DNA of 64,000 bases from Gammaproteobacteria bacterium (GCA_963662545.2 CAXXLL010000003.1:864001-928000), one strand, 5' to 3'. Positions 23,204 to 55,641 are shown, counted from the first letter of the stretch. Notes: generated by a model from the letters alone, not told the origin. Program-made: numbers and translations.

Positions 23204-23335
23204 ATGACCGCTATGGCCGAGAGCCGACCTGCTCGGCTAACGTTCTAGTGAAAGCAACTCCATGACCGCTTACGAGCGCATTGCAGACGTAATCTAGAAC
23301 GGTGATGCACTGCCGCGAGGCGGCCGCTAACGACC
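23204..23335 (+). repeat. Triple-palindrome repeat R1 (site C split by IS1182; remainder at 25020-25035)
   Basis: ATGACCGCTATGGCCGAGAGCCGACCT-31nt-ATGACCGCTTACGAGCGCATTGCAGACGT-29nt-GCGGCCGCTAACGACC. Confidence 0.9.
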
Positions 23336-25019
23336 CAGAGTGTGTGAAAACTCGGAATGAAGAGGAATCACGTCGAGAACTCCTCGTCAGACGCAACGCG
23401 GCGCGGTTCGACGGCCGCGCTCGCGGTCCAATGCGATCGGTTAGTTAATGGAACATTCCTTAGAACGGCCCCAGAAGCCGGCAGTGAAGCCGTGGATCAG
23501 GGAGTTTTCGAGGCCACAGAGGGTCTCATGCCGTCATCGCTTCGATGAGCGTAGCGACACCCAGTAGATTCATCACGCGTTTCATGTTGTAAGCGAGCAC
23601 GTGCAGACTCATTTCCGTACCAACGTGTTTCAGCGTGCGCATCTGGAAGTGGGTCGAACCCATCCAGGATTTGATCGTGCCAAACGGATGCTCGACCGTC
23701 TCTCGGCGGACACGCATAGGGTCAGGTTCACGATCCAATCGCGCCTGCACCGCTTCAACAACCGCTTCATGTTCCCAACGGCTGACGCGCCGGTATCGAC
23801 CCGTTGTGCATTTAGATTTGATCGGGCAGCGGGGACACGCCGAACTCCAGTAGCGCTGGATTTGCTTGCCTTTCTCCACTCGGGTAAACCGGTAAATCAG
23901 TCGCTCACCGGCCGGGCATTCATACGCATCCTCTTCGGGTTGGTAAATGAAGTCGCGCTTGCCAAACAAGCCCTTCGCCTGGTTACCCGAGGTCTGCGGT
24001 TTCGGCAGATAGGTCGTGATGCCGGCTTTAGCGCACGCCAAGATCTCTTCGCCACTGAAGTACCCGCGATCCGCAACGACGGTCAACTCCTTCTTATCCA
24101 GCGCCTCTTTGGCTTTCTCCGACATGTTCGACAGTTGCGCCCGGTCATGACCTACGTTCGTCACTTCATGTGCCACAATCAGATGACTCTTCGTGTCGAC
24201 CGCCGTCTGCACGTTGTACCCCACCATGCCGCTGCCACGGCCGCTCGTCGCCATCGAGCGCGCGTCCGGGTCCGTCAGTGAGACCTGATGGTCCGGCGTC
24301 TCCTCGAGCCGTACCTCGAGCTTTTTTAGGCGGCCTATCTCTTCCTTCAGTACCTCGATCTTGTCCTTCAAACGCTGCGACTTGTCACCTGACACCGCAC
24401 GCTCCTGGCGGTCGGCACTTGCAATTTCCGCCAGGTACCGCTCAACGCTCTCGTCAATCTGCTGCAACCGACGTTTCAGCTTCGCCTTCGTGAAGTTCCG
24501 GTCACGGTTGTTTACCGCTTTGAACTTGCTGCCATCTATCGCCACGAAGGCTTCCGAAAACAGCTGCAGCTTACGGCACAGCATCACGAACTCCCGGCAT
24601 ACCAGACGAATGGCGTCACCGTTATCTTTGCGGAAATCGGCAATGGTCTTGAAATCAGGCGCCAGACGACCCGTCAGCCACATCAGTTCCACGTTCCGCT
24701 GCGCCTCCCGTTCCAGGCGACGGCTCGATTGAACCCGGTTCAGGTAACCGTAGATATAGAGCTTCAGCATCGTCGCCGGGTGATACCCCGGTCGACCCGT
24801 CTCATGCGCATCGGTTCTGAAACTCAGACCTGACAGATCCAACTCATCGACGAACACATCGATGACCCGCACCGCACTCTCCTCAGCGACATAATCGTCC
24901 AGACACTCGGGAAACAGCGTTGTTTGGCGGCGGTCCGCGCCTTCAATGAACCCGCTCATCAACGACTCCCCAGGACCGAAAGAGTGATCTTATCTGATGC
25001 AGAGTTTTCACACACTCTG
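23336..25019 (-). mobile_element. IS1182-family element, copy 1
   Basis: TIR CAGAGTGTGTGAAAACTC/GAGTTTTCACACACTCTG, GACC target duplication. Confidence 0.92.
23526..24962 (-). CDS. IS1182-family transposase
   Basis: GRPGYHP..LKLYIYGY, SSRRLE, PDFKTIADFR, IDGSK, ADRGY, VEHPFGTIK. Confidence 0.93.
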   Translation of the reverse strand: MMSGFIEGADRRQTTLFPECLDDYVAEESAVRVIDVFVDELDLSGLSFRTDAHETGRPGYHPATMLKLYIYGYLNRVQSSRRLEREAQRNVELMWLTGRLAPDFKTIADFRKDNGDAIRLVCREFVMLCRKLQLFSEAFVAIDGSKFKAVNNRDRNFTKAKLKRRLQQIDESVERYLAEIASADRQERAVSGDKSQRLKDKIEVLKEEIGRLKKLEVRLEETPDHQVSLTDPDARSMATSGRGSGMVGYNVQTAVDTKSHLIVAHEVTNVGHDRAQLSNMSEKAKEALDKKELTVVADRGYFSGEEILACAKAGITTYLPKPQTSGNQAKGLFGKRDFIYQPEEDAYECPAGERLIYRFTRVEKGKQIQRYWSSACPRCPIKSKCTTGRYRRVSRWEHEAVVEAVQARLDREPDPMRVRRETVEHPFGTIKSWMGSTHFQMRTLKHVGTEMSLHVLAYNMKRVMNLLGVATLIEAMTA

Positions 25020-25248
25020 GACCCATAGCGGTCTTGTTGCACTTCGATGTTTAATCTCCTCACTAGCTCCTCGGTCCGCGAACCCGTCGTCAAAGGTGAC
25101 CGATTGCGATGATGATGGACGTTATACTTTCGATACGCCGACCGTCTGGCTGGCGCCGGACGATGCGGACAGGACGCTCGGGATCATCGATGCCGCTGTG
25201 CCACCTATTTCAGAAAACGCCTAGCAACCAATTTCAGGGGCACCGACG

Positions 25249-25896
25249 ATGCATTCGAACGTTTTTTGTCTCCAATCGATTCTCTGGGCAGTAATACTAC
25301 TGGTCTCGTTGCTCGCCGCCCCGGATCACTCCGCGGTGGCGGAATCGATCATCGAGCCAGAGCCCGATCCGTGGTTCACGTGCCGATTCGAGATCTTCCC
25401 CGACTCGCTGCCGGCCGGCGTGGAGGTCTCCGTGTCCAAAGGCCATGCGAACTGCGACGGTTTCGTTTTCAGTAACTCGTCCGCCACGCCGTTCATCGTC
25501 GCGTGACGCTCGCGGTCGTACACGACGTCGAACGTCGAATTGCCCGGCAATCTCTTCACATCGTGGATGGTAAAGGACGGCAAGCAGTTCGAGCCCGCCC
25601 CGCGAGCGATGGACGATTCACGCGTCCCGCGCCCCGAGGTCGTCGTTTCGGCATTCGGCACCCGGTGGATAGAAGCGGCCTACGTCTCCGCCTACGGGCG
25701 TCATTACGTCGGCAAAATGTCCGACGGCTTCGAGTTCGTCGACGTTCGCGAGGACGATCGGCCTGTGGACGTCGCCATCCCCGAGCCGACCGCATTCGCG
25801 TTCACCGCGTTTTACGGGGCGACCCCGGTGACCATCAGGGGGCGCGCCGTCTACGCACTGAATCCGGATTACGATCCGAACGCCGGCAAGGAGTGA
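25249..25896 (+). pseudogene. Exported hypothetical protein with one in-frame TGA (25504-25506)
   Basis: ORFs 25249..25506 and 25540..25896 share a frame, separated only by TGA; signal-peptide-like N terminus. Confidence 0.55.
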
Positions 25897-25900
25897 ACCA

Positions 25901-26025
25901 TGGGGAAACGACACTTGAAATTGGATCTAATTGGAACGCCGATCCCTTTTCAGAGTGCTTAACTACTATGCTGGTGGGGAACTTTTTACTTCCGTCGTCG
26001 TATTTTTGAGTTTTCACACAGCCTC
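25901..26025. mobile_element. Truncated diverged MITE-A variant ending at GGCC of R2 site A
   Basis: AAATTGGATCTAATT...GAGTTTTCACACAGCCTC followed by GGCC. Confidence 0.75.
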
Positions 26026-26145
26026 GGCCGTGAGCCGTCGCTGTTCACCGTCACGCCGCTGAACGCTATTGGACGACCGCTTAGAGCGCATTGCAGACGT
26101 AATCCTTGGCAGTGTTGTGCTGCCGCGACAAGGCGGCTAACGACC
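26026..26145 (+). repeat. Triple-palindrome repeat R2 (remainder at 26306-26321)
   Basis: GGCCGTGAGCCGTCGC..GACCGCTTAGAGCGCATTGCAGACGT..GGCGGCTAACGACC. Confidence 0.88.
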
Positions 26146-26305
26146 CAGACTGTGTGAAAACTATTTTCATTTTTCAAAAGTGGGGGAACTACCCTCGAAA
26201 TTGGATCTAATTGAAATGCCGATCCCTATTCGAGGGGCATAACAACTATGCTGGTGGGGAATATTTTTATTTCGTCGTCGTATTTTTGAGTTTTCACACA
26301 CTCTG
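26146..26305. mobile_element. MITE-A (160 bp) sharing IS1182 TIRs, copy 1
   Basis: CAGACTGTGTGAAAACT...AGTTTTCACACACTCTG with GACC duplication; near-identical copies elsewhere. Confidence 0.9.
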
Positions 26306-26917: not shown

Positions 26918-27040
26918 ATATTCGGAGTTGGCCGAGAGCCACCCCTAAACATGGTTGCGTCGCCGAACGCTACGGGACGGCCGCTTACGAGCGCATTGCA
27001 GACGTAATCCACCGCTGTGCTGAGGGGGCCGCTGACGACC
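26918..27040 (+). repeat. Triple-palindrome repeat R3 (internal deletion in linker 2, site C truncated)
   Basis: TGGCCGAGAGCC..CGGCCGCTTACGAGCGCATTGCAGACGTAATC..GGCCGCTGACGACC. Confidence 0.85.
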
Positions 27041-27622: not shown

Positions 27623-27755
27623 ATATCTACTTCCGACCGAGAGAGGAACTCAGCGTTCGTAGCCGATATAAATTTGGCTCGACGACCGCTTACGAGCGCA
27701 TTGCAGACGTAACCTAGAGCGGTGCTGCACTGCGGCGAGGGGGCCGCTGCCGACC
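27623..27755 (+). repeat. Triple-palindrome repeat R4 (remainder at 27916-27931)
   Basis: Degenerate site A, 31-nt linker, ACGACCGCTTACGAGCGCATTGCAGACGT, GGCCGCTGCCGACC. Confidence 0.85.
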
Positions 27756-27915
27756 CAGACTGTGTGAAAACTATTTTCATTTTTCAAAAGTGGGGGAACT
27801 ACCCTCGAAATTGGATCTAATTGAAATGCCGATCCCTATTCGAGGGGCATAACAACTATGCTGGTGGGGAATATTTTTATTTCGTCGTCGTATTTTTGAG
27901 TTTTCACACACTCTG
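27756..27915. mobile_element. MITE-A copy 2
   Basis: Matches 26146-26305; GACC duplication. Confidence 0.9.
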
Positions 27916-28570: not shown

Positions 28571-28715
28571 CTATCCGTTCGTGGCCGCGGGCCGAAGTCC
28601 TCTCTTAATACCAATCTGGAGGCTGCGGGACGACCGCTTACGAGCGCAGTGCTGCCGTAATCTAGAGCAGTGCTGCGCTGCCGCGATAAGGCGGCTGACG
28701 ACCCACTTCGGTCAT
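28571..28715 (+). repeat. Triple-palindrome repeat R5 (intact, 145 bp)
   Basis: TGGCCGCGGGCCGAAGT..GACCGCTTACGAGCGCAGTGCTGCCGT..GGCGGCTGACGACCCACTTCGGTCAT. Confidence 0.9.
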
Positions 28716-30844: not shown

Positions 30845-32229
30845 GGGTCTACGCGGAAACGTGTGGGTTGATATTGGCATTTCTGGGTAGTGGCGGAAGA
30901 AATGCCGCAATGATTTTCAGTTTGAGGAATTCCTCATCACGATAGCCATAGGCGCGTCGTTGCAGGACCCGGATTTTGTTGTTGACCCCTTCGACCAATC
31001 CAAGACTGACTTTATTCTTAGCATCACAATAGGAAGCAATGCCATCCCAATGGGATTCAATCAGCTCAGCAAACTTGCGATACGGCGCCAATCGCTGCCA
31101 TTTCAGACTGTCCTTCCAGCGCTCGAAAAAGGCACGCGCGCCGCGCTCGGTACGGTAGTCCCAGAGTTGGCCGAAGGTTTCCTTGAGGACGTAGGCGGTG
31201 TTCAGACGCCGGTTGGCCTGGAGCAGTTTTTTCAGGGCTCGTCTGCCATCCAGATTCAGGTTCTCGCGTCGCGAGAGCAAGGTATATCGCTGGCCTTTGA
31301 TGTAACTCCTGTCCTTGCCGCGGAGACGTTTGTATTCACGGCGCCGGACTTCATCGAGAGCCTTTGAGAGGTGGCGCATGATATGGAACTTGTCATAGAT
31401 GATCCGCGCCTGCGGTGCGTTGTTCATGACCGAGTTACGGAACGGCTTCCACATGTCCATCGCCGCCAGTTCGATGCGAGCGCTCTTGTTCTCGCCCAAT
31501 GCCTGGAAAAACAGGTCGATGTCAGCCTCTTTGCGACCTTCACCACCGACCCAGATAGGACGCCCCCGATCCAGGTCACTGACGATGACCCGGTAGTTAT
31601 GTCCTTTGCGGATGGAGATCTCATCAATACCGATGGCCCGGGGTGCTGGCATGCCCGCCAGCTCAACCTGCTTTTGCATGTACAGCTTATCGAGGTCTTT
31701 CACCGTGCTGTGGTGCAGGCGTTCCCTCTCGGCGACAGCCTGGTTCGGCATGTCCCGGCACAGCTTGCCCACCTGCATGGCAAAGCGCTGCGTATAGCGA
31801 GGGTTCTTTGCCAGCCAGTCAAGATGTTCTACCTGCACGCCGCCGCACCTCCGGCAACTGACACGCCAGCGTTCGAACTCCAGGTAGATTCGCCATCCGG
31901 CAACTGACAGGTCTCGTACTCGCAGCACCTTCTTGTCGTAACGCCCGCGGCACCGGTGAGCACAGTGAGAACAGATCGCTGTTTTTTTCGCCTCTTGAGT
32001 TGGATCACACGGGCATACCGATCACCAAACATGCCCACCAATTTCGATGCGGCGGTAAAACCAGGGAACGCAAACAGCGCTCGGATCGACTTGGGATTCT
32101 TCATGGCCTTAGCCTACCCACAAAATGAAACCACTTTCACCCCATACGAAATCTCTGAATGTCTACATGATTTCAATGGTTTACACTTGGTCTAATTCAG
32201 AATTTACCCACATGAATCCGCGTAGACCC
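30845..32229 (-). mobile_element. ISL3-family element
   Basis: TIR GGGTCTACGCGGA / TCCGCGTAGACCC, 8-bp duplication CGAAATTA. Confidence 0.92.
30849..32104 (-). CDS. ISL3 transposase in two overlapping frames (probable frameshift at A7C near 31985)
   Basis: GIDE, MDMWKPF, DKFH, EGVNNKIRVLQRRAYG; upstream ORF 31829..32104 supplies the N terminus. Confidence 0.85.
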
Positions 32230-33011: not shown

Positions 33012-33069
33012 ACGTCGCTTCCTGGCCGACCGCTATTGAGGGTACTGCAGACGTAATGCGTAGCAGTGC
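33012..33069 (+). repeat. Degenerate repeat R6 (site A fused to site B, truncated in linker 2)
   Basis: ACGTCGCTTCCTGGCCGACCGCTATTGAGGGTACTGCAGACGTAATGCGTAGCAGTGCTGC. Confidence 0.75.
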
Positions 33070-33296
33070 TGCGCGGCGGCGACCGCGTCCCGAGCGTAGA
33101 CGTTGGCGATGCCGGTGCCGACCCGAATACGCGTGGTTCGCGCAAGCAGGTAGGCGCAGGCAGCGAACGGTTCGCGGCCGCCGACCTCCGGCACCCATAA
33201 AGTGTCGTAACCGAGACCTTCGACCCGGCGGCCGTAATCATCGAGTTCATCAACGGGCATCCCGTCGGTGAACAGCAACACACTGTGCTTCGGCAT
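33070..33296 (-). pseudogene. N-terminal fragment of LLM-class flavin/F420 oxidoreductase
   Basis: VEGLGYDTLWVPE..GREPF..TTRIRVGTGIANVYARD, then runs into R6. Confidence 0.82.
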
Positions 33297-33920: not shown

Positions 33921-34064
33921 ACGTCCGATGTTGGCCGACAGCCCTCGTCGTCATGGTCGCGTGATCGAACGCTGTTGAAAGACCGCTTACGAGCGCATTG
34001 CAGACGTAACGTATAGCAGTGCTGCACTGCCGCGAGGAGGCCGCTGAAGACCCTAAGCAGTCAT
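33921..34064 (+). repeat. Triple-palindrome repeat R7 (intact)
   Basis: ACGTCCGATGTTGGCCGACAGCCCTCGT..GACCGCTTACGAGCGCATTGCAGACGT..GGCCGCTGAAGACCCTAAGCAGTCAT. Confidence 0.9.
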
Positions 34065-34088: not shown

Positions 34089-35428
34089 CTGAGGGATCCC
34101 CACAAATTCGACTAGCAAAATTCAAGTTGCACAATGGCGCGTGCCTGTAGATCCCGGAGCGCCTGTAATAAAGTTGAGCGCTGGATTTGAAGTTGCTTGG
34201 CAATGAGGCGAGCACCAACGAATACCACGGATAGGACGGGCTTACGTCTTTCGGTATTGGCCTGTAAACCTTTCACTAAACCTGTTTGGTAACCGACCAA
34301 GCCGACCAACCATTGGGCCAGTGTGGCCAATGCGCACAGCAAGAGTAAGTTCGCCACTCTCTCGGGATCACGTCCCATGTTTTCTCTAAGTGCAAAGCCG
34401 TAACGGGGCGACTTCATGTCGCGGAAGCTCTCTTCAATCTGCATGCGGCGACGATACACGGCAACTACCCGATGCGCACTACGAAGGTTGTCCGGCAGAT
34501 TGCTGGCCAATAACCACGGCTCACGCGCCGCTGCCGACGGTTTCTCGGTATTGCGAGCCCGCGCCGGTTTGCCGTAAGCCGTATAGCAGACACGCCCGCG
34601 TTTCTTACCTTTGTAAACGAATAAATGGGTGTCCAGCGGATTACTTTTCGTGATCAAAAAACGACCCAGTGACTTCGGACGAGCATTGGCTTGGCCGTAG
34701 AGCACTTTGTTCGAATGCCATGCCGCCTCATCCATACCTCGCACGAGGTGACGATGACGGATGCGACCCACGTAATACCATCCCATTGAGGCCACAAGAC
34801 TCAACCAGGGCGTCCGAAATCCTGCATCACTGACCAAGATCGGACAACAGCCCGCAGGCAGAATGGCCTTCAGTCGCTTCAGAAAGCGTTTCTCCGCTTT
34901 GACACTCGCGTAATGGTGTTCGACTTCTTCATACACGGGGATGGCTCGACCACCGACCGCTAAGGCCGCCCGCAATACATAGAGCTCTTGACGTTGATCC
35001 AGATTAGACCAATCCACCAACACCACCGGATGCGCACAGTCCGATACCAATAACCGAGCTATCCATTGATACCACTGCAAACGCTCACCACCGAGCTGAC
35101 GATTACCCAGCAAGCGATCGACGCGCTTAATCGCGTGTTTCTCGCTCGTGCCACTGTCTATGCTCCGACCGATATGCGTCAGCCACAAACGTCGGCCCCG
35201 AAGTAAACCGCCGACCGCCGCCCAAACCGAGAGTCGACGACCCAAATGCACACCGTATAGCGCTTCGCTGCTCATTTCATGTAACAATTTCAATACCTGC
35301 ATGGCTCACCTCGTCGTTCACAGATTGTCTTGCAACAACTGAGATCAACTCGAGCCATGCAGGTTCCACGAACCCACAAATCAATCTATCGCTTTGTATT
35401 TCGTTGGGGTTTTATGGGGATTCCTCAG
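34089..35428 (-). mobile_element. IS4-family (IS10-like) element A
   Basis: TIR CTGAGGGATCCCCA / TGGGGATTCCTCAG, 9-bp duplication AGTGCGTCC. Confidence 0.92.
34112..35302 (-). CDS. IS4-family transposase
   Basis: KHAIKRVDRLLGN, VDWS, SDAGF, YRRRMQIEESFRDMK (YREK). Confidence 0.93.
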   Translation of the reverse strand: MQVLKLLHEMSSEALYGVHLGRRLSVWAAVGGLLRGRRLWLTHIGRSIDSGTSEKHAIKRVDRLLGNRQLGGERLQWYQWIARLLVSDCAHPVVLVDWSNLDQRQELYVLRAALAVGGRAIPVYEEVEHHYASVKAEKRFLKRLKAILPAGCCPILVSDAGFRTPWLSLVASMGWYYVGRIRHRHLVRGMDEAAWHSNKVLYGQANARPKSLGRFLITKSNPLDTHLFVYKGKKRGRVCYTAYGKPARARNTEKPSAAAREPWLLASNLPDNLRSAHRVVAVYRRRMQIEESFRDMKSPRYGFALRENMGRDPERVANLLLLCALATLAQWLVGLVGYQTGLVKGLQANTERRKPVLSVVFVGARLIAKQLQIQRSTLLQALRDLQARAIVQLEFC

Positions 35429-43853: not shown

Positions 43854-43869
43854 GACCCACAGCGGACAT

Positions 43870-43934
43870 GGCTATCGGAGCGGCAGTGAAGGGAATGCCA
43901 CTGTCAAGCGTCCGCCTCCAACGACCCGTTATGC
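43870..43934 (-). other. Truncated integron attC site (R'' and L'' half)
   Basis: Minus strand GCATAAC-GGGTCG-TTGGAGGCGGACGC just after the cupin stop; complements the cassette start GTTATGC. Confidence 0.65.
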
Positions 43935-43938
43935 TGCA

Positions 43939-44382
43939 TTATGAATGCACAGTGACCCCATTTCTGTTCATTACTTCTACGATCTTTTCTATGTTCGGCG
44001 GACCTGGCGGAACTTCATTGTCGAGCGCCGTGAACATTTGAGCAGCTATGCTCCCGGAGCCTGTTATTTCCAGCATTTCGCCGCCATCGGGGCCGTATTT
44101 GAACGCATGTATCGTTCCACCCGGCACAAAAACAAGTGTGCCTGGTGTGCACAGTTCGGTCCTTCCATCACAGGTGATTTCAACGCTTCCTTTAATCACG
44201 AAAAATGATTCATCCCAGTCGTGGCTATGAGGCGGAGGTCCCATGCCTTTGTCTCCGGACTGATACGTAAATTCCTGTCCCTGTGTTTCTTGTTTTGAAG
44301 CGAGCACGGTTACGTCAGTGCCTACGACGTTCAACGCGGATTTATAAGTCTCCGGTTTGATAATAAGCGGGGCTCTACTCAT
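43939..44382 (-). CDS. Cupin domain protein (integron cassette)
   Basis: PPPHSHDWDESF..VPGGTIHAF. Confidence 0.88.
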   Translation of the reverse strand: MSRAPLIIKPETYKSALNVVGTDVTVLASKQETQGQEFTYQSGDKGMGPPPHSHDWDESFFVIKGSVEITCDGRTELCTPGTLVFVPGGTIHAFKYGPDGGEMLEITGSGSIAAQMFTALDNEVPPGPPNIEKIVEVMNRNGVTVHS

Positions 44383-45086: not shown

Positions 45087-45231
45087 GGGATGGCTCTTGG
45101 CCGACTGCAGCCGTGCTCCCTCCACTCGGTTCTTGAAGCAACTGGACGACCGCTATGAAGGGGAATGCAGACGTAATCTAGAACGGTGCCGCACTGCCGC
45201 GATCAGACCGCTGACGACCCGAAGGAGACAT
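45087..45231 (+). repeat. Triple-palindrome repeat R10 (intact, 145 bp)
   Basis: TGGCCGACTGCAGCCGT-31nt-ACGACCGCTATGAAGGGGAATGCAGACGT-29nt-CAGACCGCTGACGACCCGAAGGAGACAT. Confidence 0.9.
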
Positions 45232-45863: not shown

Positions 45864-45996
45864 AAGCCCACGCCTGGCCGCGAGCCGAACTGCTCGGCTA
45901 ACGTTCTGTTGAACTCAACTCCACGACCGCTTTGGAGCGCATTGCAGACCGAACCTAGAGCAGTGCTGCACTGCGGCGAGGCGACGGCTAACGACC
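45864..45996 (+). repeat. Triple-palindrome repeat R11 (remainder 47682-47697)
   Basis: TGGCCGCGAGCCGAACT..GACCGCTTTGGAGCGCATTGCAGAC..GACGGCTAACGACC. Confidence 0.9.
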
Positions 45997-47681
45997 CAGA
46001 GTGTGTGAAAACTCGGAATGAAGAGGAATCACGTCGAGAACTCCTCGTCAGACGCAACGCGGCGCGGTTACGACGGCCGCGCTCGCGGTCCAATGCGATC
46101 GGTTAGTTAATGGAACATTCCTTAGAACGGCCCCAGAAGCCGGCAGTGAAGCCGTGGATCAGGGAGTTTTCGAGGCCACAGAGGGTCTCATGCCGTCATC
46201 GCTTCGATGAGCGTAGCGACACCCAGTAGATTCATCACGCGTTTCATGTTGTAAGCGAGCACGTGCAGACTCATTTCCGTACCAACGTGTTTCAGCGTGC
46301 GCATCTGGAAGTGGGTCGAACCCATCCAGGATTTGATCGTGCCAAATGGATGCTCGACCGTCTCTCGGCGGACACGCATAGGGTCAGGTTCACGATCCAA
46401 TCGCGCCTGCACCGCTTCAACAACCGCTTCATGTTCCCAACGGCTGACGCGCCGGTATCGACCCGTTGTGCATTTAGATTTGATCGGGCAGCGGGGACAC
46501 GCCGAACTCCAGTAGCGCCGGATCTGCTTGCCTTTCTCCACTCGGGTGAACCGGTAAATCAGTCGCTCACCGGCCGGGCATTCATACGCATCCTCTTCGG
46601 GTTGGTAAATGAAGTCGCGCTTGCCAAACAAGCCCTTCGCCTGGTTACCCGAGGTCTGCGGTTTCGGCAGATAGGTCGTGATGCCGGCTTTAGCGCACGC
46701 CAAGATCTCTTCGCCACTGAAGTACCCGCGATCCGCAACGACGGTCAACTCCTTCTTATCCAGCGCCTCTTTGGCTTTCTCCGACATGTTCGACAGTTGC
46801 GCCCGGTCATGACCTACGTTCGTCACTTCATGTGCCACAATCAGATGACTCTTCGTGTCGACCGCCGTCTGCACGTTGTACCCCACCATGCCGCTGCCAC
46901 GGCCGCTCGTCGCCATCGAGCGCGCGTCCGGGTCCGTCAGTGAGACCTGATGGTCCGGCGTCTCCTCGAGCCGTACCTCGAGCTTTTTTAGGCGGCCTAT
47001 CTCTTCCTTCAGTACCTCGATCTTGTCCTTCAAACGCTGCGACTTGTCACCTGACACCGCACGCTCCTGGCGGTCGGCACTTGCAATTTCCGCCAGGTAC
47101 CGCTCAACGCTCTCGTCAATCTGCTGCAACCGACGTTTCAGCTTCGCCTTCGTGAAGTTCCGGTCACGGTTGTTTACCGCTTTGAACTTGCTGCCATCTA
47201 TCGCCACGAAGGCTTCCGAAAACAGCTGCAGCTTACGGCACAGCATCACGAACTCCCGGCATACCAGACGAATGGCGTCACCGTTATCTTTGCGGAAATC
47301 GGCAATGGTCTTGAAATCAGGCGCCAGACGACCCGTCAGCCACATCAGTTCCACGTTCCGCTGCGCCTCCCGTTCCAGGCGACGGCTCGATTGAACCCGG
47401 TTCAGGTAACCGTAGATATAGAGCTTCAGCATCGTCGCCGGGTGATACCCCGGTCGACCCGTCTCATGCGCATCGGTTCTGAAACTCAGACCTGACAGAT
47501 CCAACTCATCGACGAACACATCGATGACCCGCACCGCACTCTCCTCAGCGACATAATCGTCCAGACACTCGGGAAACAGCGTTGTTTGGCGGCGGTCCGC
47601 GCCTTCAATGAACCCGCTCATCAACGACTCCCCAGGACCGAAAGAGTGATCTTATCTGATGCAGAGTTTTCACACACTCTG
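45997..47681 (-). mobile_element. IS1182-family element, copy 3 (transposase 46188..47624)
   Basis: Same TIRs, GACC duplication, ORF identical to copy 2. Confidence 0.93.
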
Positions 47682-47734
47682 GACCCTAAGCAGACCTTGT
47701 AGGTTCTTGTACTCTGACCTCAAACCATTAGCAG

Positions 47735-48442
47735 CTATTCAGCGCGCTGCTTATCCCAGCCGTTCCAGAACGTCACATCGCGCGCCGGGAAGCGTTTCGC
47801 GGGTCTTAAATCGCCACCCTTGAGCCAGGCGACCGGTAGCAGTACCGCCTGCGTGTAATGCGCAGGAACGCCGAGAAGTTCCTGGATCTCTTTTTCATAC
47901 ATCAGAGTGAATGTCGTCCAGGCCGACGCAACTCCGCGCGCGCGGAGCGCCAGCATCAACGACCAGGCCGCCGGTAGAATGGACCCCCACATGGAGCCTT
48001 GGGTAAAGACATCTTCGTGGTCGAAGCGGTTTTCCAGGAAAAGCATGATGTGTACGGGGACGCGGTGCAGATTTTCTATTAAATGGACCGCCGATTTGAC
48101 GATTAGAGGCATTCTTTGCTGACGCGGGTCGTCGTCAGGGTACTGTTTATCGACGGCCACGCCGGTGCGCGTTACTCCGGTTTCACCGGCCAGGTAACGC
48201 TCCGCCCCCTGGCGATACAGGTCAGCTATACCCGAGCGTAAATGTTCATCCGTGACTACGACGAAGCGCCAGGTCTGAGAATTCGCTCCGGTCGGTGCCT
48301 GGAGCGCCACTTCGATCGCTTCTTCGATCAGTGATTCCGGAACGGATCGCTCGAGGTCGAGGCGCAGACGGACCGTGCGCGTGGTCTTCATAACATGATC
48401 GACGCTTGCGAGGTCGATTTTCTTGGGGGCTTGCTCCGCCAT
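47735..48442 (-). CDS. Nitroreductase family protein
   Basis: TTRTVRLRLD, QAPTGANSQTWRF, SILPAAWSLMLALRARG..WTT. Confidence 0.9.
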   Translation of the reverse strand: MAEQAPKKIDLASVDHVMKTTRTVRLRLDLERSVPESLIEEAIEVALQAPTGANSQTWRFVVVTDEHLRSGIADLYRQGAERYLAGETGVTRTGVAVDKQYPDDDPRQQRMPLIVKSAVHLIENLHRVPVHIMLFLENRFDHEDVFTQGSMWGSILPAAWSLMLALRARGVASAWTTFTLMYEKEIQELLGVPAHYTQAVLLPVAWLKGGDLRPAKRFPARDVTFWNGWDKQRAE

Positions 48443-48581
48443 ATCTGCTCTCCAAGTTCGTTGTGCGAACGGGGACGGATAGCCGTCTCCGACATATTAC
48501 ACAGGCGTTGCTCCGACGCCGCTGTGATTCGATATCATTGCGCCGCTCTTTGTCTGCCAAGTGGCGCAGCGCGTCCAATTG

Positions 48582-49448
48582 TTAGTCGTTCAGTTCAACC
48601 GTGTCGCCCTGTTTGATTTCACCGGGCACGCGCACATGGGCGCCAACGCCAAGGCATTGGTCGCCTTCCTTCACCACAGTGCGCAATATCGATTTGTCAT
48701 ATTCGATATCGGCTTGTGGTCTTACGGTCATACCGCAACGCACCGTCGGCATGGTGATCTCGAGGGTTGCCGAGCCGATCGCCAGAGTCTTGCCGACCCA
48801 GTCGTTTTCGACCAGGCCCGTTACCGCCGGGTCGGTCTCGATGTAGAAGTTCGGACGAAAACGCCGGATATCCCAGTTCGCGCCGGGATTTTTCCTGCGC
48901 ATGTAGTCCATCGACGCCGTGGTGATCATATGGATCTCCTCATTGTCGAAAAAAGTGCCGGGGACCGCGACATGATCCATCAGCACCTCTGGGAACAGAG
49001 ACATCTCCGGTACCGGTTCGCCCGGCTCGCGCGCGAAAAGCTCCGTCATTTCCTCAAGGAATACTTGTTCGTCCGGTTTGTGGCGCTTGTAGAATTCGAG
49101 ATTGCTAGCTGGTTCGATTGCGCGCAACGTCGCATCACGCTCGATCAATTCGCTCAGTTTAGCGTTGACCCGCGCATCGTCGCTGCCGATCGTTTGCCCG
49201 TCGGGGAACGTGATAACGACCGGTGTGATCGCATCATCGCTCGGCTCGGCGCGATACCGCGCCGAGCACAGCATGAGCTGCGGATAACGCTTGCCCCATG
49301 TAATCTCCGCCCGTCCCTCGTCGCGCATCGCCCAGCACCGGTCACCCGCGACGCCGGTTTGAGTGACCTTGCAGCGCTCGATTGTGTCGCCCTGCATCGA
49401 TTTCACCGGAAAACGCCAAATCTCCTTTATCACTCCAACGCGCGCCAT
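48582..49448 (-). CDS. MOSC domain protein
   Basis: IWRFPVKSMQG, GDRCWA, RRFRPN, RCGMT. Confidence 0.92.
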   Translation of the reverse strand: MARVGVIKEIWRFPVKSMQGDTIERCKVTQTGVAGDRCWAMRDEGRAEITWGKRYPQLMLCSARYRAEPSDDAITPVVITFPDGQTIGSDDARVNAKLSELIERDATLRAIEPASNLEFYKRHKPDEQVFLEEMTELFAREPGEPVPEMSLFPEVLMDHVAVPGTFFDNEEIHMITTASMDYMRRKNPGANWDIRRFRPNFYIETDPAVTGLVENDWVGKTLAIGSATLEITMPTVRCGMTVRPQADIEYDKSILRTVVKEGDQCLGVGAHVRVPGEIKQGDTVELND

Positions 49449-49565
49449 ATTCGACTCCTCGCCACTATTGCTGTATGCCCACTGTCAAGAGTAACTCCGT
49501 TAGACACCCGCGCGCACTTCAAATCGATGCCCGTCGAATAATCGAGCTCAGAGCAACAACTCATA

Positions 49566-49873
49566 AGGTCTGTTATTGGCCGAGGCTGTGTCAAAAGTAT
49601 TTTCGAATTTTGAAAGTGGGAGAAGTTTAACCCGATTCGCCTACCTTAGGCGGTGCGTTCCCTTAATCAATCGTGCATAACAACCTAAGTGGGGAAAATT
49701 TTCGCGGCGGGCTCCATTTTTCGACTTTTGACACAGCCTCGGCCGGAAGCCGAAGTCACCTCCAGCGATGTTTTCTAAACAAGCTGAATGGCCGCTTACG
49801 AGCGCATTGCAGACCTGACCCCAAGCAGTGCTGCACTGCCGCGAGGAGGCGGCTGACGACCCATTTCAGCCAC
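49566..49873 (+). repeat. Triple-palindrome repeat R12 (site A split by MITE-B)
   Basis: Rebuilt AGGTCTGTTAT-TGGCCG-GAAGCCGAAGT; GGCCGCTTACGAGCGCATTGCAGAC; GGCGGCTGACGACCCATTTCAGCCAC. Confidence 0.88.
49582..49740. mobile_element. MITE-B copy 2 (inverted relative to copy 1)
   Basis: Reverse complement of 40264-40422 with a few substitutions; GGCC duplication. Confidence 0.88.
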
Positions 49874-49979
49874 CCAAGCGAAATTTTCTCGACTTGCTGG
49901 CTGAGTTGACCGAGAGTCTCCCAGAGCGCCCGCGAAGAACATTGTACAATCCACTTCGACGCACAAGGGAGGAATCACC

Positions 49980-50357
49980 ATGTCAGAACGACACACCGAA
50001 CTTTACGCAATCACATTGAAATTCCTCGACGCATTCAATCGTAACGATCTCGATGACGTCATGTCATTTTTCTCCAATGAAGCCGTTTATGAAGAGCTGC
50101 ATGGCAAGATTAACGACGGCAAGGACGCGATTCGCGAAGCCTTTGTTCCCCAATTCGAAGGAAAGTTCGGCAAAATGGAGTTTATAGAAGACGACACTTT
50201 TATTGACGCTGACGCCGGCAAGATCATGAGCGGTTGGGATCTGCATATGGAAAAAGACGGCGGGCCAGTGGTGGTGAAAGGGCTTGATCTGCTTTACTTC
50301 GAGGGCGATAAAATTGTACGCAAGCAGACGTTTGTGAAGCAGAAAGATCCGTTGTAA
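49980..50357 (+). CDS. NTF2/SnoaL-like protein
   Basis: FLDAFNRNDLDDVMSFF..GKDAIR..GLDLL..KI..K. Confidence 0.87.
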   Translation: MSERHTELYAITLKFLDAFNRNDLDDVMSFFSNEAVYEELHGKINDGKDAIREAFVPQFEGKFGKMEFIEDDTFIDADAGKIMSGWDLHMEKDGGPVVVKGLDLLYFEGDKIVRKQTFVKQKDPL

Positions 50358-50472
50358 GAGAGACGCTCTGTAAGCCGGGGCCGAATCGACTCGATAAATA
50401 AATGGGGCCAAGCAAACACGACCGTGAACGCCGTGAATTTTTACTCTGGCCCCGAGGGATGAGGAGAGCGAG

Positions 50473-50967
50473 ATGACACTGCCTGATTCTGCAATCCTGC
50501 TCCGGCGTGGAGAGGGCGACTATGTGACCATCGGGACCGGCACTCGCTGTACCTTTAAGCTCAGGGGGGAAAACACGGACGGGCATTTCGGTCTGTTCGA
50601 GTATGTGATGGAGCCTGGGACTGAAGGACCGCGGCGCCATATCCATCGTCAGATGGCGGAAATCTTCTACGTGGTCGAAGGAGAGCTCGAATTCATCGTT
50701 GGAGACGAGAAGATCACGGCCCGGGCCGGTACGACCGCCCTCGTCCCCAAGGAGGTTGTGCATGCCTTTTCCAACCCGGGCCCGCAGCGCTCGGTGTTGC
50801 TGGTTATGTTTTGCCCGGCAGACTCGCGTGAGAAATACTTCGAGGGGCTGGCTGAACTCCTCAAAGACGGGCAAGCGTCGGATCAAGAAGCCTTACTGGA
50901 GTTGATGCGGCAACATGACACCGAGCCGGTGGCGGAACCGCTCTATGGAGAAATAGATGCGCCGTAA
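50473..50967 (+). CDS. Cupin domain protein
   Basis: HIHRQMAEIFYVVEG..VPKEVVHAFSN. Confidence 0.9.
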   Translation: MTLPDSAILLRRGEGDYVTIGTGTRCTFKLRGENTDGHFGLFEYVMEPGTEGPRRHIHRQMAEIFYVVEGELEFIVGDEKITARAGTTALVPKEVVHAFSNPGPQRSVLLVMFCPADSREKYFEGLAELLKDGQASDQEALLELMRQHDTEPVAEPLYGEIDAP

Positions 50968-51019
50968 AGGAAGCTAGTGTGCTGTCCCGCAAGAAACTTA
51001 CGCTCAAATAAATCTGTCC

Positions 51020-52372
51020 CTGAAGGCTCCCCACGAATTGAAGGAGAATTCACATAAAAAATAGCCATTTAGAAAAATAAATAGCGAACAATAGGGAACA
51101 TGCATGACGTTCGGTGATCAATAACGGTGACGAAACCAAATTGGTCACGGGAGAACGCCATGCATGCACTGAGATTGTTGCACAAAATAATGGGGCAAGC
51201 CTGTCCGCAGATACACGCGGTAAGGCTAACGGCATTGATGGCGAGCGTTGAGGCCCTTTTGGTCGGCCGTCAGATGAGCTTAGCCGGTCTTGGTCGCGCC
51301 TTGCTGTCGGGGGCGCGAGTCAAACACAACATCAAGCGAGTCGACCGGTTAATTGGCAACCGTCATCTGTGGGGAGAACGAACGGAACTCTATGGGGCGA
51401 TGGCGGGGCTGGTGCTTGGACAAGGACCACGTCCGGTAATTATTCTGGACTGGTCGGATATGCGCGAAGATCGGTCATGGCAGTTGTTGCGTGCGGCGGT
51501 TCCGGTGGGAGGCCGTTCACTGACGCTCTACGAAGAAGTACATCCCTTGTCGGCGTATGACAACCGGGGTGTCAGGAAACGGTTTCTGGAGCGTCTTCGA
51601 GAGATCTTACCACCGGGGTGTCGCCCGCTCTTAGTCACGGATGCCGGCTTCCGGACGACTTGGTTTAGACAGGTCGAAGCAATGGGTTGGGACTGGGTCG
51701 GTCGGGTCCGCGGGCGCACCCATTTCCGGCTGGACAACCAGGCAAGCTGGCAACCGTGCCGGACGTTGCATGCGATGGCCAACTCACGTGTGCGGCATAT
51801 CGGGACAGTCGAACTAACGGTATCGAATCCATTGGCCTGTGACCTGTACCTGGTGAAGAAGAAAAAGCGTGGCCGTCAACAACTGACCTGCCGCGGCACG
51901 CGTGCCCGTGGTGGCCGCAGCCTTAGCTGTGAACGACGCCAGCGCGAACCCTGGATATTGGTCACCTCACTGGGGTCGCGCGCGGCCCAGCAGGTGATGC
52001 GGTGTTATCAGTTGCGCATGCAGATTGAGGAGAGTTTCCGGGATATGAAAAATGCCCGTTTGGGACTGCACTTCCGCAGCGCGCGTTCCAACAGCGCCGA
52101 GCGGCTCTCGATCCTCGTCCTGATTGGTACGTTGGCAACATTAGTCGCTTGGTTAGTCGGCCAAGCGATGCAGCGTTTCGGGCTGCAGCGCCATTACCAG
52201 GCCAATACAACCCGGCATCGGCCGGTACTCTCCACCGTCTTTCTGGGCTTGCAAAGTTTTTGCAGGCAACCCGTAAAGCTTATGCTGGCAGACATCAAGC
52301 AATCGATTATCGCCTTACACCAAAATACCGCAAACCCGTTGCGTTATGCGTAAGTTCGTGGGGATCCTTCAG
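51020..52372 (+). mobile_element. IS4-family (IS10-like) element B
   Basis: TIR CTGAAGGCTCCCCACGAA / TTCGTGGGGATCCTTCAG, 9-bp duplication AATCTGTCC. Confidence 0.92.
51160..52353 (+). CDS. IS4-family transposase
   Basis: KHNIKRVDRL, LDWS, TDAGF, YQLRMQIEESFRDMK. Confidence 0.93.
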   Translation: MHALRLLHKIMGQACPQIHAVRLTALMASVEALLVGRQMSLAGLGRALLSGARVKHNIKRVDRLIGNRHLWGERTELYGAMAGLVLGQGPRPVIILDWSDMREDRSWQLLRAAVPVGGRSLTLYEEVHPLSAYDNRGVRKRFLERLREILPPGCRPLLVTDAGFRTTWFRQVEAMGWDWVGRVRGRTHFRLDNQASWQPCRTLHAMANSRVRHIGTVELTVSNPLACDLYLVKKKKRGRQQLTCRGTRARGGRSLSCERRQREPWILVTSLGSRAAQQVMRCYQLRMQIEESFRDMKNARLGLHFRSARSNSAERLSILVLIGTLATLVAWLVGQAMQRFGLQRHYQANTTRHRPVLSTVFLGLQSFCRQPVKLMLADIKQSIIALHQNTANPLRYA

Positions 52373-52385
52373 AATCTGTCCCCTT

Positions 52386-52507
52386 TGGCAGAGAGCCGAA
52401 GTTGCCGCCGCCGCTCACTGTTACGTAAGTCGAGTGACCGCTTACAAGCGCATTGCAGACGTAATCTAGGGCGGTGCTGCACTGCCGCGATTAGGCCGCT
52501 GACGACC
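52386..52507 (+). repeat. Triple-palindrome repeat R13 (left arm of site A absent; remainder 54193-54208)
   Basis: TGGCAGAGAGCCGAAGT..TGACCGCTTACAAGCGCATTGCAGACGT..GGCCGCTGACGACC. Confidence 0.88.
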
Positions 52508-54192
52508 CAGAGTGTGTGAAAACTCGGAATGAAGAGGAATCACGTCGAGAACTCCTCGTCAGACGCAACGCGGCGCGGTTACGACGGCCGCGCTCGCGGT
52601 CCAATGCGATCGGTTAGTTAATGGAACATTCCTTAGAACGGCCCCAGAAGCCGGCAGTGAAGCCGTGGATCAGGGAGTTTTCGAGGCCACAGAGGGTCTC
52701 ATGCCGTCATCGCTTCGATGAGCGTAGCGACACCCAGTAGATTCATCACGCGTTTCATGTTGTAAGCGAGCACGTGCAGACTCATTTCCGTACCAACGTG
52801 TTTCAGCGTGCGCATCTGGAAGTGGGTCGAACCCATCCAGGATTTGATCGTGCCAAATGGATGCTCGACCGTCTCTCGGCGGACACGCATAGGGTCAGGT
52901 TCACGATCCAATCGCGCCTGCACCGCTTCAACAACCGCTTCATGTTCCCAACGGCTGACGCGCCGGTATCGACCCGTTGTGCATTTAGATTTGATCGGGC
53001 AGCGGGGACACGCCGAACTCCAGTAGCGCCGGATCTGCTTGCCTTTCTCCACTCGGGTGAACCGGTAAATCAGTCGCTCACCGGCCGGGCATTCATACGC
53101 ATCCTCTTCGGGTTGGTAAATGAAGTCGCGCTTGCCAAACAAGCCCTTCGCCTGGTTACCCGAGGTCTGCGGTTTCGGCAGATAGGTCGTGATGCCGGCT
53201 TTAGCGCACGCCAAGATCTCTTCGCCACTGAAGTACCCGCGATCCGCAACGACGGTCAACTCCTTCTTATCCAGCGCCTCTTTGGCTTTCTCCGACATGT
53301 TCGACAGTTGCGCCCGGTCATGACCTACGTTCGTCACTTCATGTGCCACAATCAGATGACTCTTCGTGTCGACCGCCGTCTGCACGTTGTACCCCACCAT
53401 GCCGCTGCCACGGCCGCTCGTCGCCATCGAGCGCGCGTCCGGGTCCGTCAGTGAGACCTGATGGTCCGGCGTCTCCTCGAGCCGTACCTCGAGCTTTTTT
53501 AGGCGGCCTATCTCTTCCTTCAGTACCTCGATCTTGTCCTTCAAACGCTGCGACTTGTCACCTGACACCGCACGCTCCTGGCGGTCGGCACTTGCAATTT
53601 CCGCCAGGTACCGCTCAACGCTCTCGTCAATCTGCTGCAACCGACGTTTCAGCTTCGCCTTCGTGAAGTTCCGGTCACGGTTGTTTACCGCTTTGAACTT
53701 GCTGCCATCTATCGCCACGAAGGCTTCCGAAAACAGCTGCAGCTTACGGCACAGCATCACGAACTCCCGGCATACCAGACGAATGGCGTCACCGTTATCT
53801 TTGCGGAAATCGGCAATGGTCTTGAAATCAGGCGCCAGACGACCCGTCAGCCACATCAGTTCCACGTTCCGCTGCGCCTCCCGTTCCAGGCGACGGCTCG
53901 ATTGAACCCGGTTCAGGTAACCGTAGATATAGAGCTTCAGCATCGTCGCCGGGTGATACCCCGGTCGACCCGTCTCATGCGCATCGGTTCTGAAACTCAG
54001 ACCTGACAGATCCAACTCATCGACGAACACATCGATGACCCGCACCGCACTCTCCTCAGCGACATAATCGTCCAGACACTCGGGAAACAGCGTTGTTTGG
54101 CGGCGGTCCGCGCCTTCAATGAACCCGCTCATCAACGACTCCCCAGGACCGAAAGAGTGATCTTATCTGATGCAGAGTTTTCACACACTCTG
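52508..54192 (-). mobile_element. IS1182-family element, copy 4 (transposase 52699..54135)
   Basis: Same TIRs, GACC duplication, ORF identical to copy 2. Confidence 0.93.
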
Positions 54193-54330
54193 GACCCACA
54201 GCGGACATTAACGATATTGGATATATCGCTATATGGGGATCAGGTCCCGTATGCGTCTTTATAAGTCCGTAGGCTGGCAAAAGCACTCCATAATTGTTGG
54301 AGTGTAAGACTTGATCCCAATCTAACTTCT

Positions 54331-54945
54331 CTACAGCAAAAACGGAATAATCATCGCTGCCACGATTATCATGAATGGCAGTCCGATCCATATGATTTTG
54401 GCGAACACTCCCGCATTTGATGGTTTTGGCCAATCCTTATCCATAAATCCAAAGTAAACCCCATACCCCTCACGCCACTCTAAACTCCATAGAAGGCCAG
54501 CGCATACGTATAGAACCCCTGACGCAAAAATGTTCGGGAGCCAAGTAAAAGGGTACTCGCCATCGCGAAGTACCAAATACCCATCGTACGACCAACTTGC
54601 AGAAAACATCCAGACACAAATTGCGACGTACAGGACTTCCCAGTTCCTATGATGACGAAACGTCCGGTATACGATTCCAACAGTCCACGGTGCCGTCGTA
54701 TACGCCAGGATGGACATAAAAGCTGCATCGATGTAATCCCAAGTGGGATCGCCCGTGTACGGCGCAATCACCGTCAATGAAACTGAAGAAATCAGAAAGG
54801 TGACGAGCTTCCAGCGCTGGAACAGCATAAGCCAGTATTCGTGGTCGAAGAGCTCGATATCTCTTCGCCGGGTGTACATAAGAGCGCCAGCCGCCACGCA
54901 CGCAGTCAACCAGGCCCCCATGTAGATCTTGAATGCCAGTTCCAT
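54331..54945 (-). CDS. Hypothetical polytopic membrane protein
   Basis: Several hydrophobic segments; APYTGDPTWDY, SASWSYDGY; start at MELAF. Confidence 0.78.
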   Translation of the reverse strand: MELAFKIYMGAWLTACVAAGALMYTRRRDIELFDHEYWLMLFQRWKLVTFLISSVSLTVIAPYTGDPTWDYIDAAFMSILAYTTAPWTVGIVYRTFRHHRNWEVLYVAICVWMFSASWSYDGYLVLRDGEYPFTWLPNIFASGVLYVCAGLLWSLEWREGYGVYFGFMDKDWPKPSNAGVFAKIIWIGLPFMIIVAAMIIPFLL

Positions 54946-55159
54946 CCTTGAGATCAGCCTAAAGGTTACGGTGTCATTTGAAAACGGTTCCGATACCAAA
55001 GGTTCGGAAAAGCCTCGTGATTTGACGGAATGTGAGAACAAACCTCAAATTCTCTGAGAAACTTGTTGGGGTGACTCGTAATATGAATCTGTTGAATGAG
55101 TTTGATCAAAGCCCGTCGCCGGCAATTGATGAACAGATTTGCGGATTTCCTAGCAGTAC

Positions 55160-55292
55160 ATGGCGGCTTTTAGCCGAGAGCCGTCCTGCTCAGCTAACGT
55201 ACCACCGAACGCTACGGGACGACCGCTTACGAGCACATTGCAGACGTAATCCTTACCTGTGTTGCACTGCCGCGATGAGTCGGCTCACGACC
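55160..55292 (+). repeat. Triple-palindrome repeat R14 (remainder 55453-55468)
   Basis: ATGGCGGCTTT-TAGCCG-AGAGCCGTCCT..GACCGCTTACGAGCACATTGCAGACGT..GTCGGCTCACGACC. Confidence 0.9.
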
Positions 55293-55452
55293 CAGACTGT
55301 GTGAAAACTATTTTCATTTTTCAAAAGTGGGGGAACTACCCTCGAAATTGGATCTAATTGAAATGCCGATCCCTATTCGAGGGGCATAACAACTATGCTG
55401 GTGGGGAATATTTTTATTTCGTCGTCGTATTTTTGAGTTTTCACACAGTCTG
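55293..55452. mobile_element. MITE-A copy 4
   Basis: Same 160-bp sequence; GACC duplication. Confidence 0.9.
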
Positions 55453-55641
55453 GACCCGAAGGAGACACTGGCGAAAATCGAATAACCCATCCTGACAGTT
55501 TCGAGTAGGGGAAAGTTAGCTGCGAGCGTAATGTGGCAATGCAAGACTCCCCCCATTTATTAATTTCGATCGGGTGAGTTCCACAGAAGGGTAGACCGCC
55601 GGAAAAGGGTTAAGTCACTGTTTCAGAGACGATTAGCGCTT

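Follow-up and report, generated by a model that had tools for sequence, protein, structure and literature searches.

What makes two kinds of mobile element insert repeatedly at one and the same nucleotide of a dispersed repeat? This question is raised by a 64,000-nucleotide stretch of a gammaproteobacterial genome (Gammaproteobacteria bacterium, GCA_963662545.2, CAXXLL010000003.1:864001-928000), hereafter called the window, in which an insertion sequence (IS) of the IS1182 family and a 160-bp miniature inverted-repeat transposable element (MITE), designated MITE-A, occupy a single palindromic site, subsite C, of a repeat of ~128 nt. The genome of 5.58 Mb (58% G+C) is assembled in three contigs. 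Positions without prefix are those of the window, and genome coordinates carry the prefix C2 or C3; window 23264-60919 corresponds to C3:887264-924919. An initial annotation of the window had described the pair as a specialised parasite of a recombination site, comparable to the ISs that target attC or REP (repetitive extragenic palindromic) sequences. The fixed position on a repeated palindromic site was borne out. The insertion specificity is real and well supported, and it represents a variant within the known parasites of repeated sites.

Structure of the IS and of the 160-bp MITE

By direct-repeat search and direct reading, four IS copies (1,684/1,685 bp) and four MITE-A copies (160 bp) were found in the window. 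The IS copies are located on the minus strand at 23336-25019 (copy 1, 1,684 bp), 42169-43853 (copy 2), 45997-47681 (copy 3) and 52508-54192 (copy 4), the last three being 1,685 bp in length, and the MITE-A copies on the plus strand at 26146-26305, 27756-27915, 40544-40703 and 55293-55452. As stated in the initial annotation, the two elements share their ends: all eight copies start with CAGA(G/C)TGTGTGAAAACT, and the reverse complement of this sequence forms the other end. Each copy is also flanked on either side by GACC (for IS copy 1, at 23332-23335 and 25020-25023), the duplication lying at the same position of subsite C in every case.

The coding content of the IS is one open reading frame (ORF) of 478 amino acids, on the minus strand in the window copies (23526-24962 in copy 1, 42360-43796 in copy 2). 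Its terminal sequence CAGAGTGTGTGAAAACTC matches the complement of the other end at 18 of 20 nt, giving inverted ends of ~17-20 nt. The encoded transposase gave 465.9 bits against the NCBIfam model NF033551 (IS1182), for which the cut-off is 270, with a near full-length match over residues 10-465; the Pfam matches were DUF772, DDE_Tnp_1 and DDE_Tnp_1_6. With a DDE transposase above the model cut-off, a 4-bp duplication, a single gene and short terminal inverted repeats, the element belongs to the IS1182 family, as initially assigned. The members of this family range in size from ~1.3 to 2 kb.

MITE-A is 160 bp long and contains no ORF, and it has the ends of the resident IS, the same duplication and many copies. 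The sequence common to MITE-A and the IS is limited to the terminal 17-18 nt, indicating that MITE-A is an end-borrowing MITE and not an internal deletion product. A true deletion derivative of the IS, 865 bp in length, is present elsewhere (C3:2544727-2545591). Position 5 of the MITE-A end switches between C and G (CAGAC/CAGAG), independently at each end, the window copies being otherwise at least 98.75% identical; the ends of the IS, unlike these variable ends, are always CAGAG. A BLAST search of the whole genome gave identities of 99.2-100% among the IS copies and 98-100% among the MITE-A copies, and this near-identity suggests that the IS has been active recently.

The repeat and its three subsites

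A repeat profile was built from 13 window copies and searched against the genome. It gave 115 matches, including 15 inside the window, one of which (33027-33083) is partial. Ten partial matches were set aside, and the counts below refer to the 105 near-full cores. The repeat was found to consist of three like sites in the same direction, subsite A (arm-GGCC-arm), subsite B (arm-GAGCG-arm) and subsite C (arm-GACC-arm), with their centres spaced by ~59 and 57 bp. One half-site consensus, nnnAGCnGnC when read outward from the centre, is common to all three. Subsite C thereby forms a 24-bp sequence of two-fold symmetry, GNCNGCTNNN-GACC-NNNAGCNGNC.

All complete units of the window lie on the plus strand, and their coordinates are given here from centre to centre, starting at GGCC of subsite A and ending at GACC of subsite C. 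Subsite C is occupied by the IS in unit 1 (23215-23335), unit 9 (42048-42168), unit 11 (45876-45996) and unit 13 (52387-52507), and by MITE-A in unit 2 (26026-26145), unit 4 (27635-27755), unit 8 (40423-40543) and unit 14 (55172-55292). It is empty in unit 3 (26930-27040), which has a shortened core without the right arm after it, and in unit 5 (28583-28703), unit 7 (33932-34052), unit 10 (45099-45219; the reference empty site), unit 12 (49741-49861) and unit 15 (60799-60919). The partial core at 33027-33083, also on the plus strand, covers model positions 1-57 and is without subsite C. Occupation of eight of the 15 repeats, each directly after GACC, agrees with the count of the initial annotation.

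Subsite B, which had been noted never to be hit, was uninterrupted in each of the 105 near-full cores. The arms of subsite B conform to the consensus; its centre GAGCG is one base longer and lacks GRCC, and this 5-nt centre offers a simple reason why the subsite is not used. Three split cores were broken in the central region, not in subsite B, by unrelated ISs with duplications of their own. An IS with the ends TGTGCTGTCCC... (C2:710905-712093) splits a repeat at the CTAG of the central GTAATCTAG motif, and the insertion of such an IS at CTAG recurs at ~10142-12543 in a locus of a congener (L106, G001:C14), pointing to a second, unrelated hot spot.

Two other interpretations of the conserved sequence were dropped after inspection by eye. 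A micro-ORF spanning subsite C was discarded, the variable positions not being third-codon positions. Likewise, the half-sites are not scars or tips of the IS, the ends of which (CAGAGTGTGT...) misfit nnnAGCnGnC at positions 6, 8 and 10.

Insertion at subsite C throughout the genome

The specificity seen in the window was observed throughout the genome. In the BLAST search, 14 full IS copies, the 865-bp deleted IS, 15 intact MITE-A copies (at least 98% identity), one MITE-A damaged at its far end and one rearranged copy were all located at the GACC of subsite C. Profile-detected repeats harbour the deleted IS and 13 of the full copies; the fourteenth full copy (C3:1263907), like a few MITE variants, was found at the same subsite of a variant repeat. 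GACC or its complement flanks all of the full IS copies (14/14) and all of the intact MITE-A copies (15/15). Since empty subsites C contain one GACC and occupied ones two, the tetranucleotide is a true target duplication; since GACC is not its own complement, it lies outside the inverted ends. The genome contains 54,924 GACC/GGTC sites, and the chance that ~29 independent events would all fall on ~110 of them is near 1e-78.

Inspection of the 105 near-full repeats showed an IS at subsite C in 14 cases, a MITE in 16 and an isolated end in two. By eye, a further four were found with the CAGGCTGTCCGAAAACT ends of a second lineage, five with the TATTSTGTTGAAAAAGTC ends of a more distant lineage and three adjoining unrelated sequence, so that at most 61 are empty. 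Repeats at C2:1635250, C3:15198 and C3:2555745 are cut three bases before GACC and continue into an identical sequence, GTAGAGTAAGGATG..., which is probably the end of another element using subsite C.

Orientation of the inserted elements

Because the centre of subsite C is asymmetric, the duplication read in the direction of the element gives its orientation. All eight window copies lie in one orientation relative to the repeat (the target site duplication reads GACC), in agreement with the initial proposal of one orientation per element type. This rule did not hold for the genome as a whole: the GACC reading was observed for 12 of the 14 IS copies (binomial p = 0.013, the copies being not all independent), and MITE-A was forward in 16 of 17 cases (p = 2.7e-4; the damaged copy counted as forward, the rearranged one as reverse). 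For the MITE family designated MITE-C, inserted at the symmetric GGCC, both orientations were found about equally, as read from the end types.

Sister lineages and subsite A

Scans with end motifs detected further MITE families of ~150-165 bp. MITE-B (GAGGCTGTGTGAAAACT) and MITE-C (GAGGCTGTGTCAAAAGT) are flanked by GGCC and lie in subsite A or similar sites. MITE-D (CAGGCTGTCCGAAAACT) and a second IS, 73% identical to the first (C2:681307), are located at the GACC of subsite C. A family of ~160 bp with the ends TATTSTGTTGAAAAAGTC was found at the GACC of subsite C or the GGCC of similar sites (C2:76112, 76737 and 445065; C3:2556024 and 2557911), and no autonomous partner was identified for this family. 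MITE-B, C, D and E and the second IS occupy the same centres in this genome, and relatives of the MITEs were detected at such sites in both congeners.

The initial site count for the window had to be corrected accordingly, as subsite A of three repeats is also occupied or adjoined by sister MITEs. Two are MITE-C copies of 159 bp at the GGCC centre, one at 40264-40422 in unit 8 and one in the opposite orientation at 49582-49740 in unit 12. The third is a remnant of MITE-B at ~25896-26025, the end of which (...GTTTTCACACAGCCTC) adjoins the GGCC of subsite A in unit 2 and the left end of which is missing.

Target of related elements in other genomes

Relatives of the IS were collected by a scan of one genome per species. 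The best 80 of 581 stretches were analysed (61-77% amino acid identity), derived from Gamma-, Beta- and Alphaproteobacteria and a few other metagenome-assembled genomes. The pattern of both ends was recognized for 49 elements; after exclusion of five with a short flank and six with unlike tetranucleotides, 38 distinct sites were left. The duplication at these sites was GGCC in 27, GGTC in four, GACC in three and another tetranucleotide in four. Among the 76 pooled arms, position 6 was C in 64, position 8 was G in 67 and position 10 was C in 61. The flanks were also enriched for the palindrome, the check suggested in the initial annotation: on average, 4.24 of 10 pairs were complementary at the relatives' sites, compared with 2.62 at 972 control sites (GGCC, GACC or GGTC within the same loci; Mann-Whitney p = 3e-9). 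The two arms did not covary, with 184 identical positions between arms against 199 expected for the 38 sites (p = 0.96). The symmetry therefore reflects one consensus that is read in both arms, and not the need for a hairpin. No link was detected among the relatives between the tip sequence and the duplicated tetranucleotide, CAGAC tips being associated with both GGCC and GACC.

The strict 24-mer was present in five and six copies in two Pseudomonas genomes, against none for the reversed control, and was not found in the three other genomes searched. The Pseudomonas sites cluster near IS copies, either singly, paired 34 bp apart or behind the tandem copies of a small gene. At one Pseudomonas locus (L110, G033:C1:46500-50500), three strict 24-bp targets directly follow the stop codons of three tandem small-protein units of ~412 bp. 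As the proteobacterial relatives show the same half-site consensus, the target specificity is a property of the IS clade and does not represent a local adaptation to the array.

Composite transposon and movement of gene modules

The window segment 45923-54197 was found to be 99.8% identical over 8,277 bp to C2:2578406-2586680, with unlike outer flanks. In this segment, IS copies 3 and 4 form the left and right arms of a composite transposon (45997-54192), with a cargo of 4.8 kb in between and the outer left junction at unit 11. The second copy of this 8.2-kb unit is located at C2:2578480-2586675, and a GACC duplication is present outside the unit at both places. The cargo includes nitroreductase, MOSC, SnoaL and cupin genes, an IS4-like transposase, two repeat units and one MITE-C. 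In addition, the empty site at C3:13498 joins, at one GACC, the left flank of the IS at C2:2578480 and the right flank of the IS at C2:2584991-2586675. From these sequence relationships, the pair of IS copies behaves as a composite transposon that moved as one unit into subsite C of another array. The initial annotation had proposed that the IS may freeze the array; the presence of the composite in two arrays indicates that it mobilises modules as well.

Segmental duplication had been argued against on the ground of the differing flanks. When the flanks were compared for all 105 sites, only two pairs were identical on both sides, a MITE pair (C2:2588136 and C3:11969) and an internal repeat of a larger duplicated unit; the left cores of other copies are ~75-85% identical, and their right flanks are unrelated. 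The argument thus stands for most copies, but it holds only in part for the IS copies at 45997 and 52508, which belong to the composite, and for the one MITE pair. The end of C2 (2573000-2591134) and the start of C3 (1-18000) contain inverted, near-identical stretches that include the MITE with identical flanks and differ by the 8.2-kb composite transposon. This likeness may stem from a genuine inverted duplication or from the separate assembly of two variants of the population.

Gene modules also differ in the repeats to which they are joined. Paralogous modules join different repeat cores, with homology ending at the centre of subsite C or A or no more than a few bases away; one module follows unlike cores in two species. 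Such switching of partners at the A and C centres would be expected of a crossover site, but it could also have arisen by recombination between IS copies, since most of the module pairs within the genome involve an IS.

Nature of the repeat

The repeat arrays are unidirectional and island-borne, with the repeats separating gene modules. The window array follows a tRNA gene (19923-19996, plus strand) and a P4-type tyrosine integrase gene (20173-21441, plus strand) at the head of the island, and another array follows an 85%-identical, frameshifted integrase gene at C2:72831-74040. The same repeat was found in the arrays of both congeners searched. A BLAST search of 28 more distant genomes gave no match, and the repeat is genus-specific among the genomes covered. 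The repeat matched no Rfam family, the sole Rfam match of the window at gathering scores being a tRNA.

The attC site of integrons is characterized by inverted R''/R' cores (RYYYAAC ... GTTRRRY), a conserved single-strand hairpin and an arrangement in arrays beside intI. Two integron integrases above the curated cut-off were identified in the genome. One belongs to a classical chromosomal integron (C2:985245-997664), in which IntI (C2:996723) gave 462 bits on TIGR02249 and at least nine attC sites of ~115 nt with CCTAAC...GTTAGG boxes are located upstream; the second IntI (C3:1527239) has no repeats within 24 kb. In comparison with these real attC sites, the identification of the repeat as attC was rejected, because it contains neither the CCTAAC...GTTAGG boxes nor a consistent fold: single-stranded folds of three empty repeats, calculated for both strands, gave z scores from +0.75 to -2.05, no better than for shuffled sequence, and no shared hairpin. 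The integron attC sites of the genome contain no copy of the IS or the MITEs. The IS itself also falls outside the IS1111-attC group, as its transposase is of the DDE (IS1182) and not the DEDD type.

The target could therefore not be equated with the known recombination site of this genome, and no test made here tied a recombinase, or recombination itself, to the repeat. Nor do the insertions serve as an independent mark of a recognised structure, as initially put forward: the arms do not covary and the single-strand folds are unremarkable. We consider it a speculative, rather doubtful idea that an undescribed system of gene modules, distinct from integrons, uses the repeat as its recombination site, with three dimer-binding, res-like subsites and crossover at the A and C centres, and resides on tRNA-integrated islands, and that a proteobacterial IS1182 clade has specialised on such crossover subsites, its sister lineages splitting between GACC and GGCC. 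If this were true, the IS and MITE insertions would provide a ready genome-wide marker for finding such arrays.

Mode of target recognition

The observations are, in our judgement, probably best explained by a site-specific IS1182 element and MITEs with a 24-bp target that is read as sequence and inherited throughout the clade. The IS transposase would cut the central GACC of 5'-GNCNGCTNNN/GACC/NNNAGCNGNC-3' with a 4-bp stagger, both half-sites most likely being read by a symmetric transposase assembly, and the same transposase would move MITE-A. The preference would be inherited by the whole IS clade, and the best targets would be provided, in over 100 copies in this genome, by subsite C of the genus-specific repeat. 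The GGCC centre of subsite A would be the target of sister MITE lineages with GAGGC tips, and subsite B, in spite of its good arms, would stay uncut on account of its 5-nt GAGCG centre. Pairs of the IS would act as composite transposons, carrying gene modules into subsite C of other arrays.

Several points weigh against this explanation. For sites with all six key arm bases and a GACC centre, occupancy was 23/51 inside profile-detected repeats, compared with 3/27 outside (Fisher p = 0.0025), and the three occupied outside sites lie in variant repeats. Sequence alone may thus not fully explain the choice, and context, accessibility or selection also matters. The orientation bias, most marked for MITE-A (16/17), is not explained by near-identical ends and a near-symmetric target. 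The mobilisation of MITE-A by the IS transposase is presumed from the terminal 17-18 nt that they share. No direct transposition was seen, and the contigs of public runs gave no clean evidence of excision or of an empty site. When contigs of four public runs were compared with 39800-44200, a joint skipping 42164-43854 was detected in two runs, with a short side of 30 letters; this joint was not taken as excision, because the paralogous empty site at C3:356379 can yield it.

The higher occupancy inside repeats would also be expected if the transposase were recruited or oriented by a protein bound to the repeat, such as an array recombinase or an accessory factor, the IS then recognising a recombination complex instead of the bare sequence. 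The same model would accommodate the strong orientation bias at the asymmetric C centre, next to the insertion of MITE-C in both orientations at the symmetric GGCC of subsite A, and the change of partners of paralogous modules at or near the A and C centres, as expected of crossover sites. We nevertheless regard recruitment as unlikely, given that relatives in Pseudomonas, Halomonas and others hit the same 24-bp consensus without the repeat, at solitary or paired sites, that no recombinase was linked to the repeat, and that the occupancy gap is equally well accounted for if insertions outside arrays are removed by purifying selection. A further possibility is a passive origin, the copies having multiplied through segmental duplication, gene conversion or inter-repeat recombination, or having inserted widely, with survival confined to the arrays as a safe haven. 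Two of the window IS copies do lie in one duplicated 8.2-kb unit, both flanks are identical between the members of one MITE pair, and the arrays also contain ISL3, IS4-like, IS5-like and IS91-type elements. All other copies have unlike left cores and unrelated right flanks, every copy is located at the same nucleotide with the same duplication, the target is shared by relatives elsewhere, and survival in a safe haven would not account for the restriction to one position among 54,924 tetranucleotides. This origin is therefore very improbable and largely refuted.

A different mode of recognition has been proposed for IS1272, in which the transposase would recognise a palindrome as a hairpin or cruciform and not as a sequence. 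The present target is an imperfect palindrome; in the parts of the literature consulted, IS1272 and TnSha1 are described as inserting into hairpins of unrelated sequence, and Siguier et al. (2015) is cited for palindrome targeting by some IS1182 members (PMC5678879; PMC4923244). For the IS in question, such recognition seems improbable to us. The arms lack covariation, three arm positions are conserved in sequence in 80-88% of arms, the folds of the three empty repeats share no hairpin, and the clean 4-bp duplication without deletion is unlike the insertions of IS1272. Recognition of the 24-bp target as a sequence accordingly remains the preferred explanation.

Other features of the window

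Other transposases encoded in the array region are of the ISL3 family, of the IS4-like type (DDE_Tnp_1, two genes) and of the rve type, and lie at 30849-31928, 34112-35302, 51127-52353 and 21914-23002; the ISL3-family transposase has a 100% identical copy at C2:1612000-1613282. A 2.8-kb element at 56803-59640 carries the gene for a XerC/IntI-like tyrosine recombinase of 319 amino acids (58389-59348), followed by that for an IS91-family Y2 transposase (57182-58375). A 98.9% identical copy is located at C3:6584-9421, a third, interrupted copy at C2:623594-627154, and diverged pairs are present in other arrays. Palindromic sites resembling subsites A and C were noticed directly upstream of the 319-amino-acid recombinase gene (~59390-59480). 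The ORF at 55931-56650 (239 amino acids) has no Pfam match, is rich in His-Asp motifs and contains a 99-bp tandem duplication, 85% identical, at 56291-56484.

Significance and comparison with known systems

The target choice described here is unusually strict for the IS1182 family. A family loosely known to 'target palindromes' is given a symmetric 24-bp target that is defined in sequence, is cut at a fixed point and is conserved in a clade distributed over several classes of Proteobacteria, and target choice by a DDE transposase becomes directly testable by mutating the half-sites, the centre and the spacing. The IS at the same time reshapes cassette-like arrays: about a third of the repeats are occupied, and the composite carries modules to the same site of another array. 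The insertions also draw attention to a three-subsite repeat, present in more than 100 copies and distinct from the integron attC of the same genome. The identity of this repeat is a more novel question than the insertion specificity.

A literature search, which did not cover supplements such as Table S7 of PMC11578231 (MITEPye1 sites), yielded no paper on the 24-bp target, and none on IS1182 elements that reside in attC-like sites or are specialised on a cassette-array repeat. It likewise found nothing relevant on integron-like cassette systems with imperfect palindromes. Among the closest known elements are ISPse1 of Paracoccus, an IS1182-family element of 1,653 bp with 16-bp ends and a 4-bp repeat (PMC3281130), and MITEPye1/ISPye18, a MITE with IS1182-like ends and its partner (PMC11578231). 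As far as the consulted passages of these two papers go, the present elements resemble them in transposase family, size, end length, the 4-bp duplication and a MITE sharing only the inverted ends. Those passages mention no fixed target, whereas the present elements have a 24-bp symmetric consensus and at least five MITE lineages. IS1272 and TnSha1 of staphylococci, also of the IS1182 family, are similar in their inverted-repeat targets and in the IS-bounded unit with cargo. According to the sections consulted, IS1272 inserts into hairpins irrespective of their sequence, without a duplication and with loss of part of the target (PMC5678879; PMC4923244), whereas sequence-specific half-sites and a clean GACC duplication without deletion were observed here.

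With respect to position, the elements resemble the IS1111-attC group and the group IIC-attC introns, which, in the portions of the sources consulted, occupy one position, mostly in one orientation, in the site separating gene cassettes. The former use a DEDD transposase guided by RNA (PMC11187229), and the latter are retrohoming introns (PMC3001079). Unlike both, the present IS has a DDE transposase, and its target is not attC. Elements specialised on an abundant intergenic palindrome, REP or the bacterial interspersed mosaic element (BIME), include IS1397 and ISKpn1, which are DDE elements of the IS3 family. The IS described here is likewise a DDE element on an abundant palindrome, but it belongs to another family and uses another kind of repeat.

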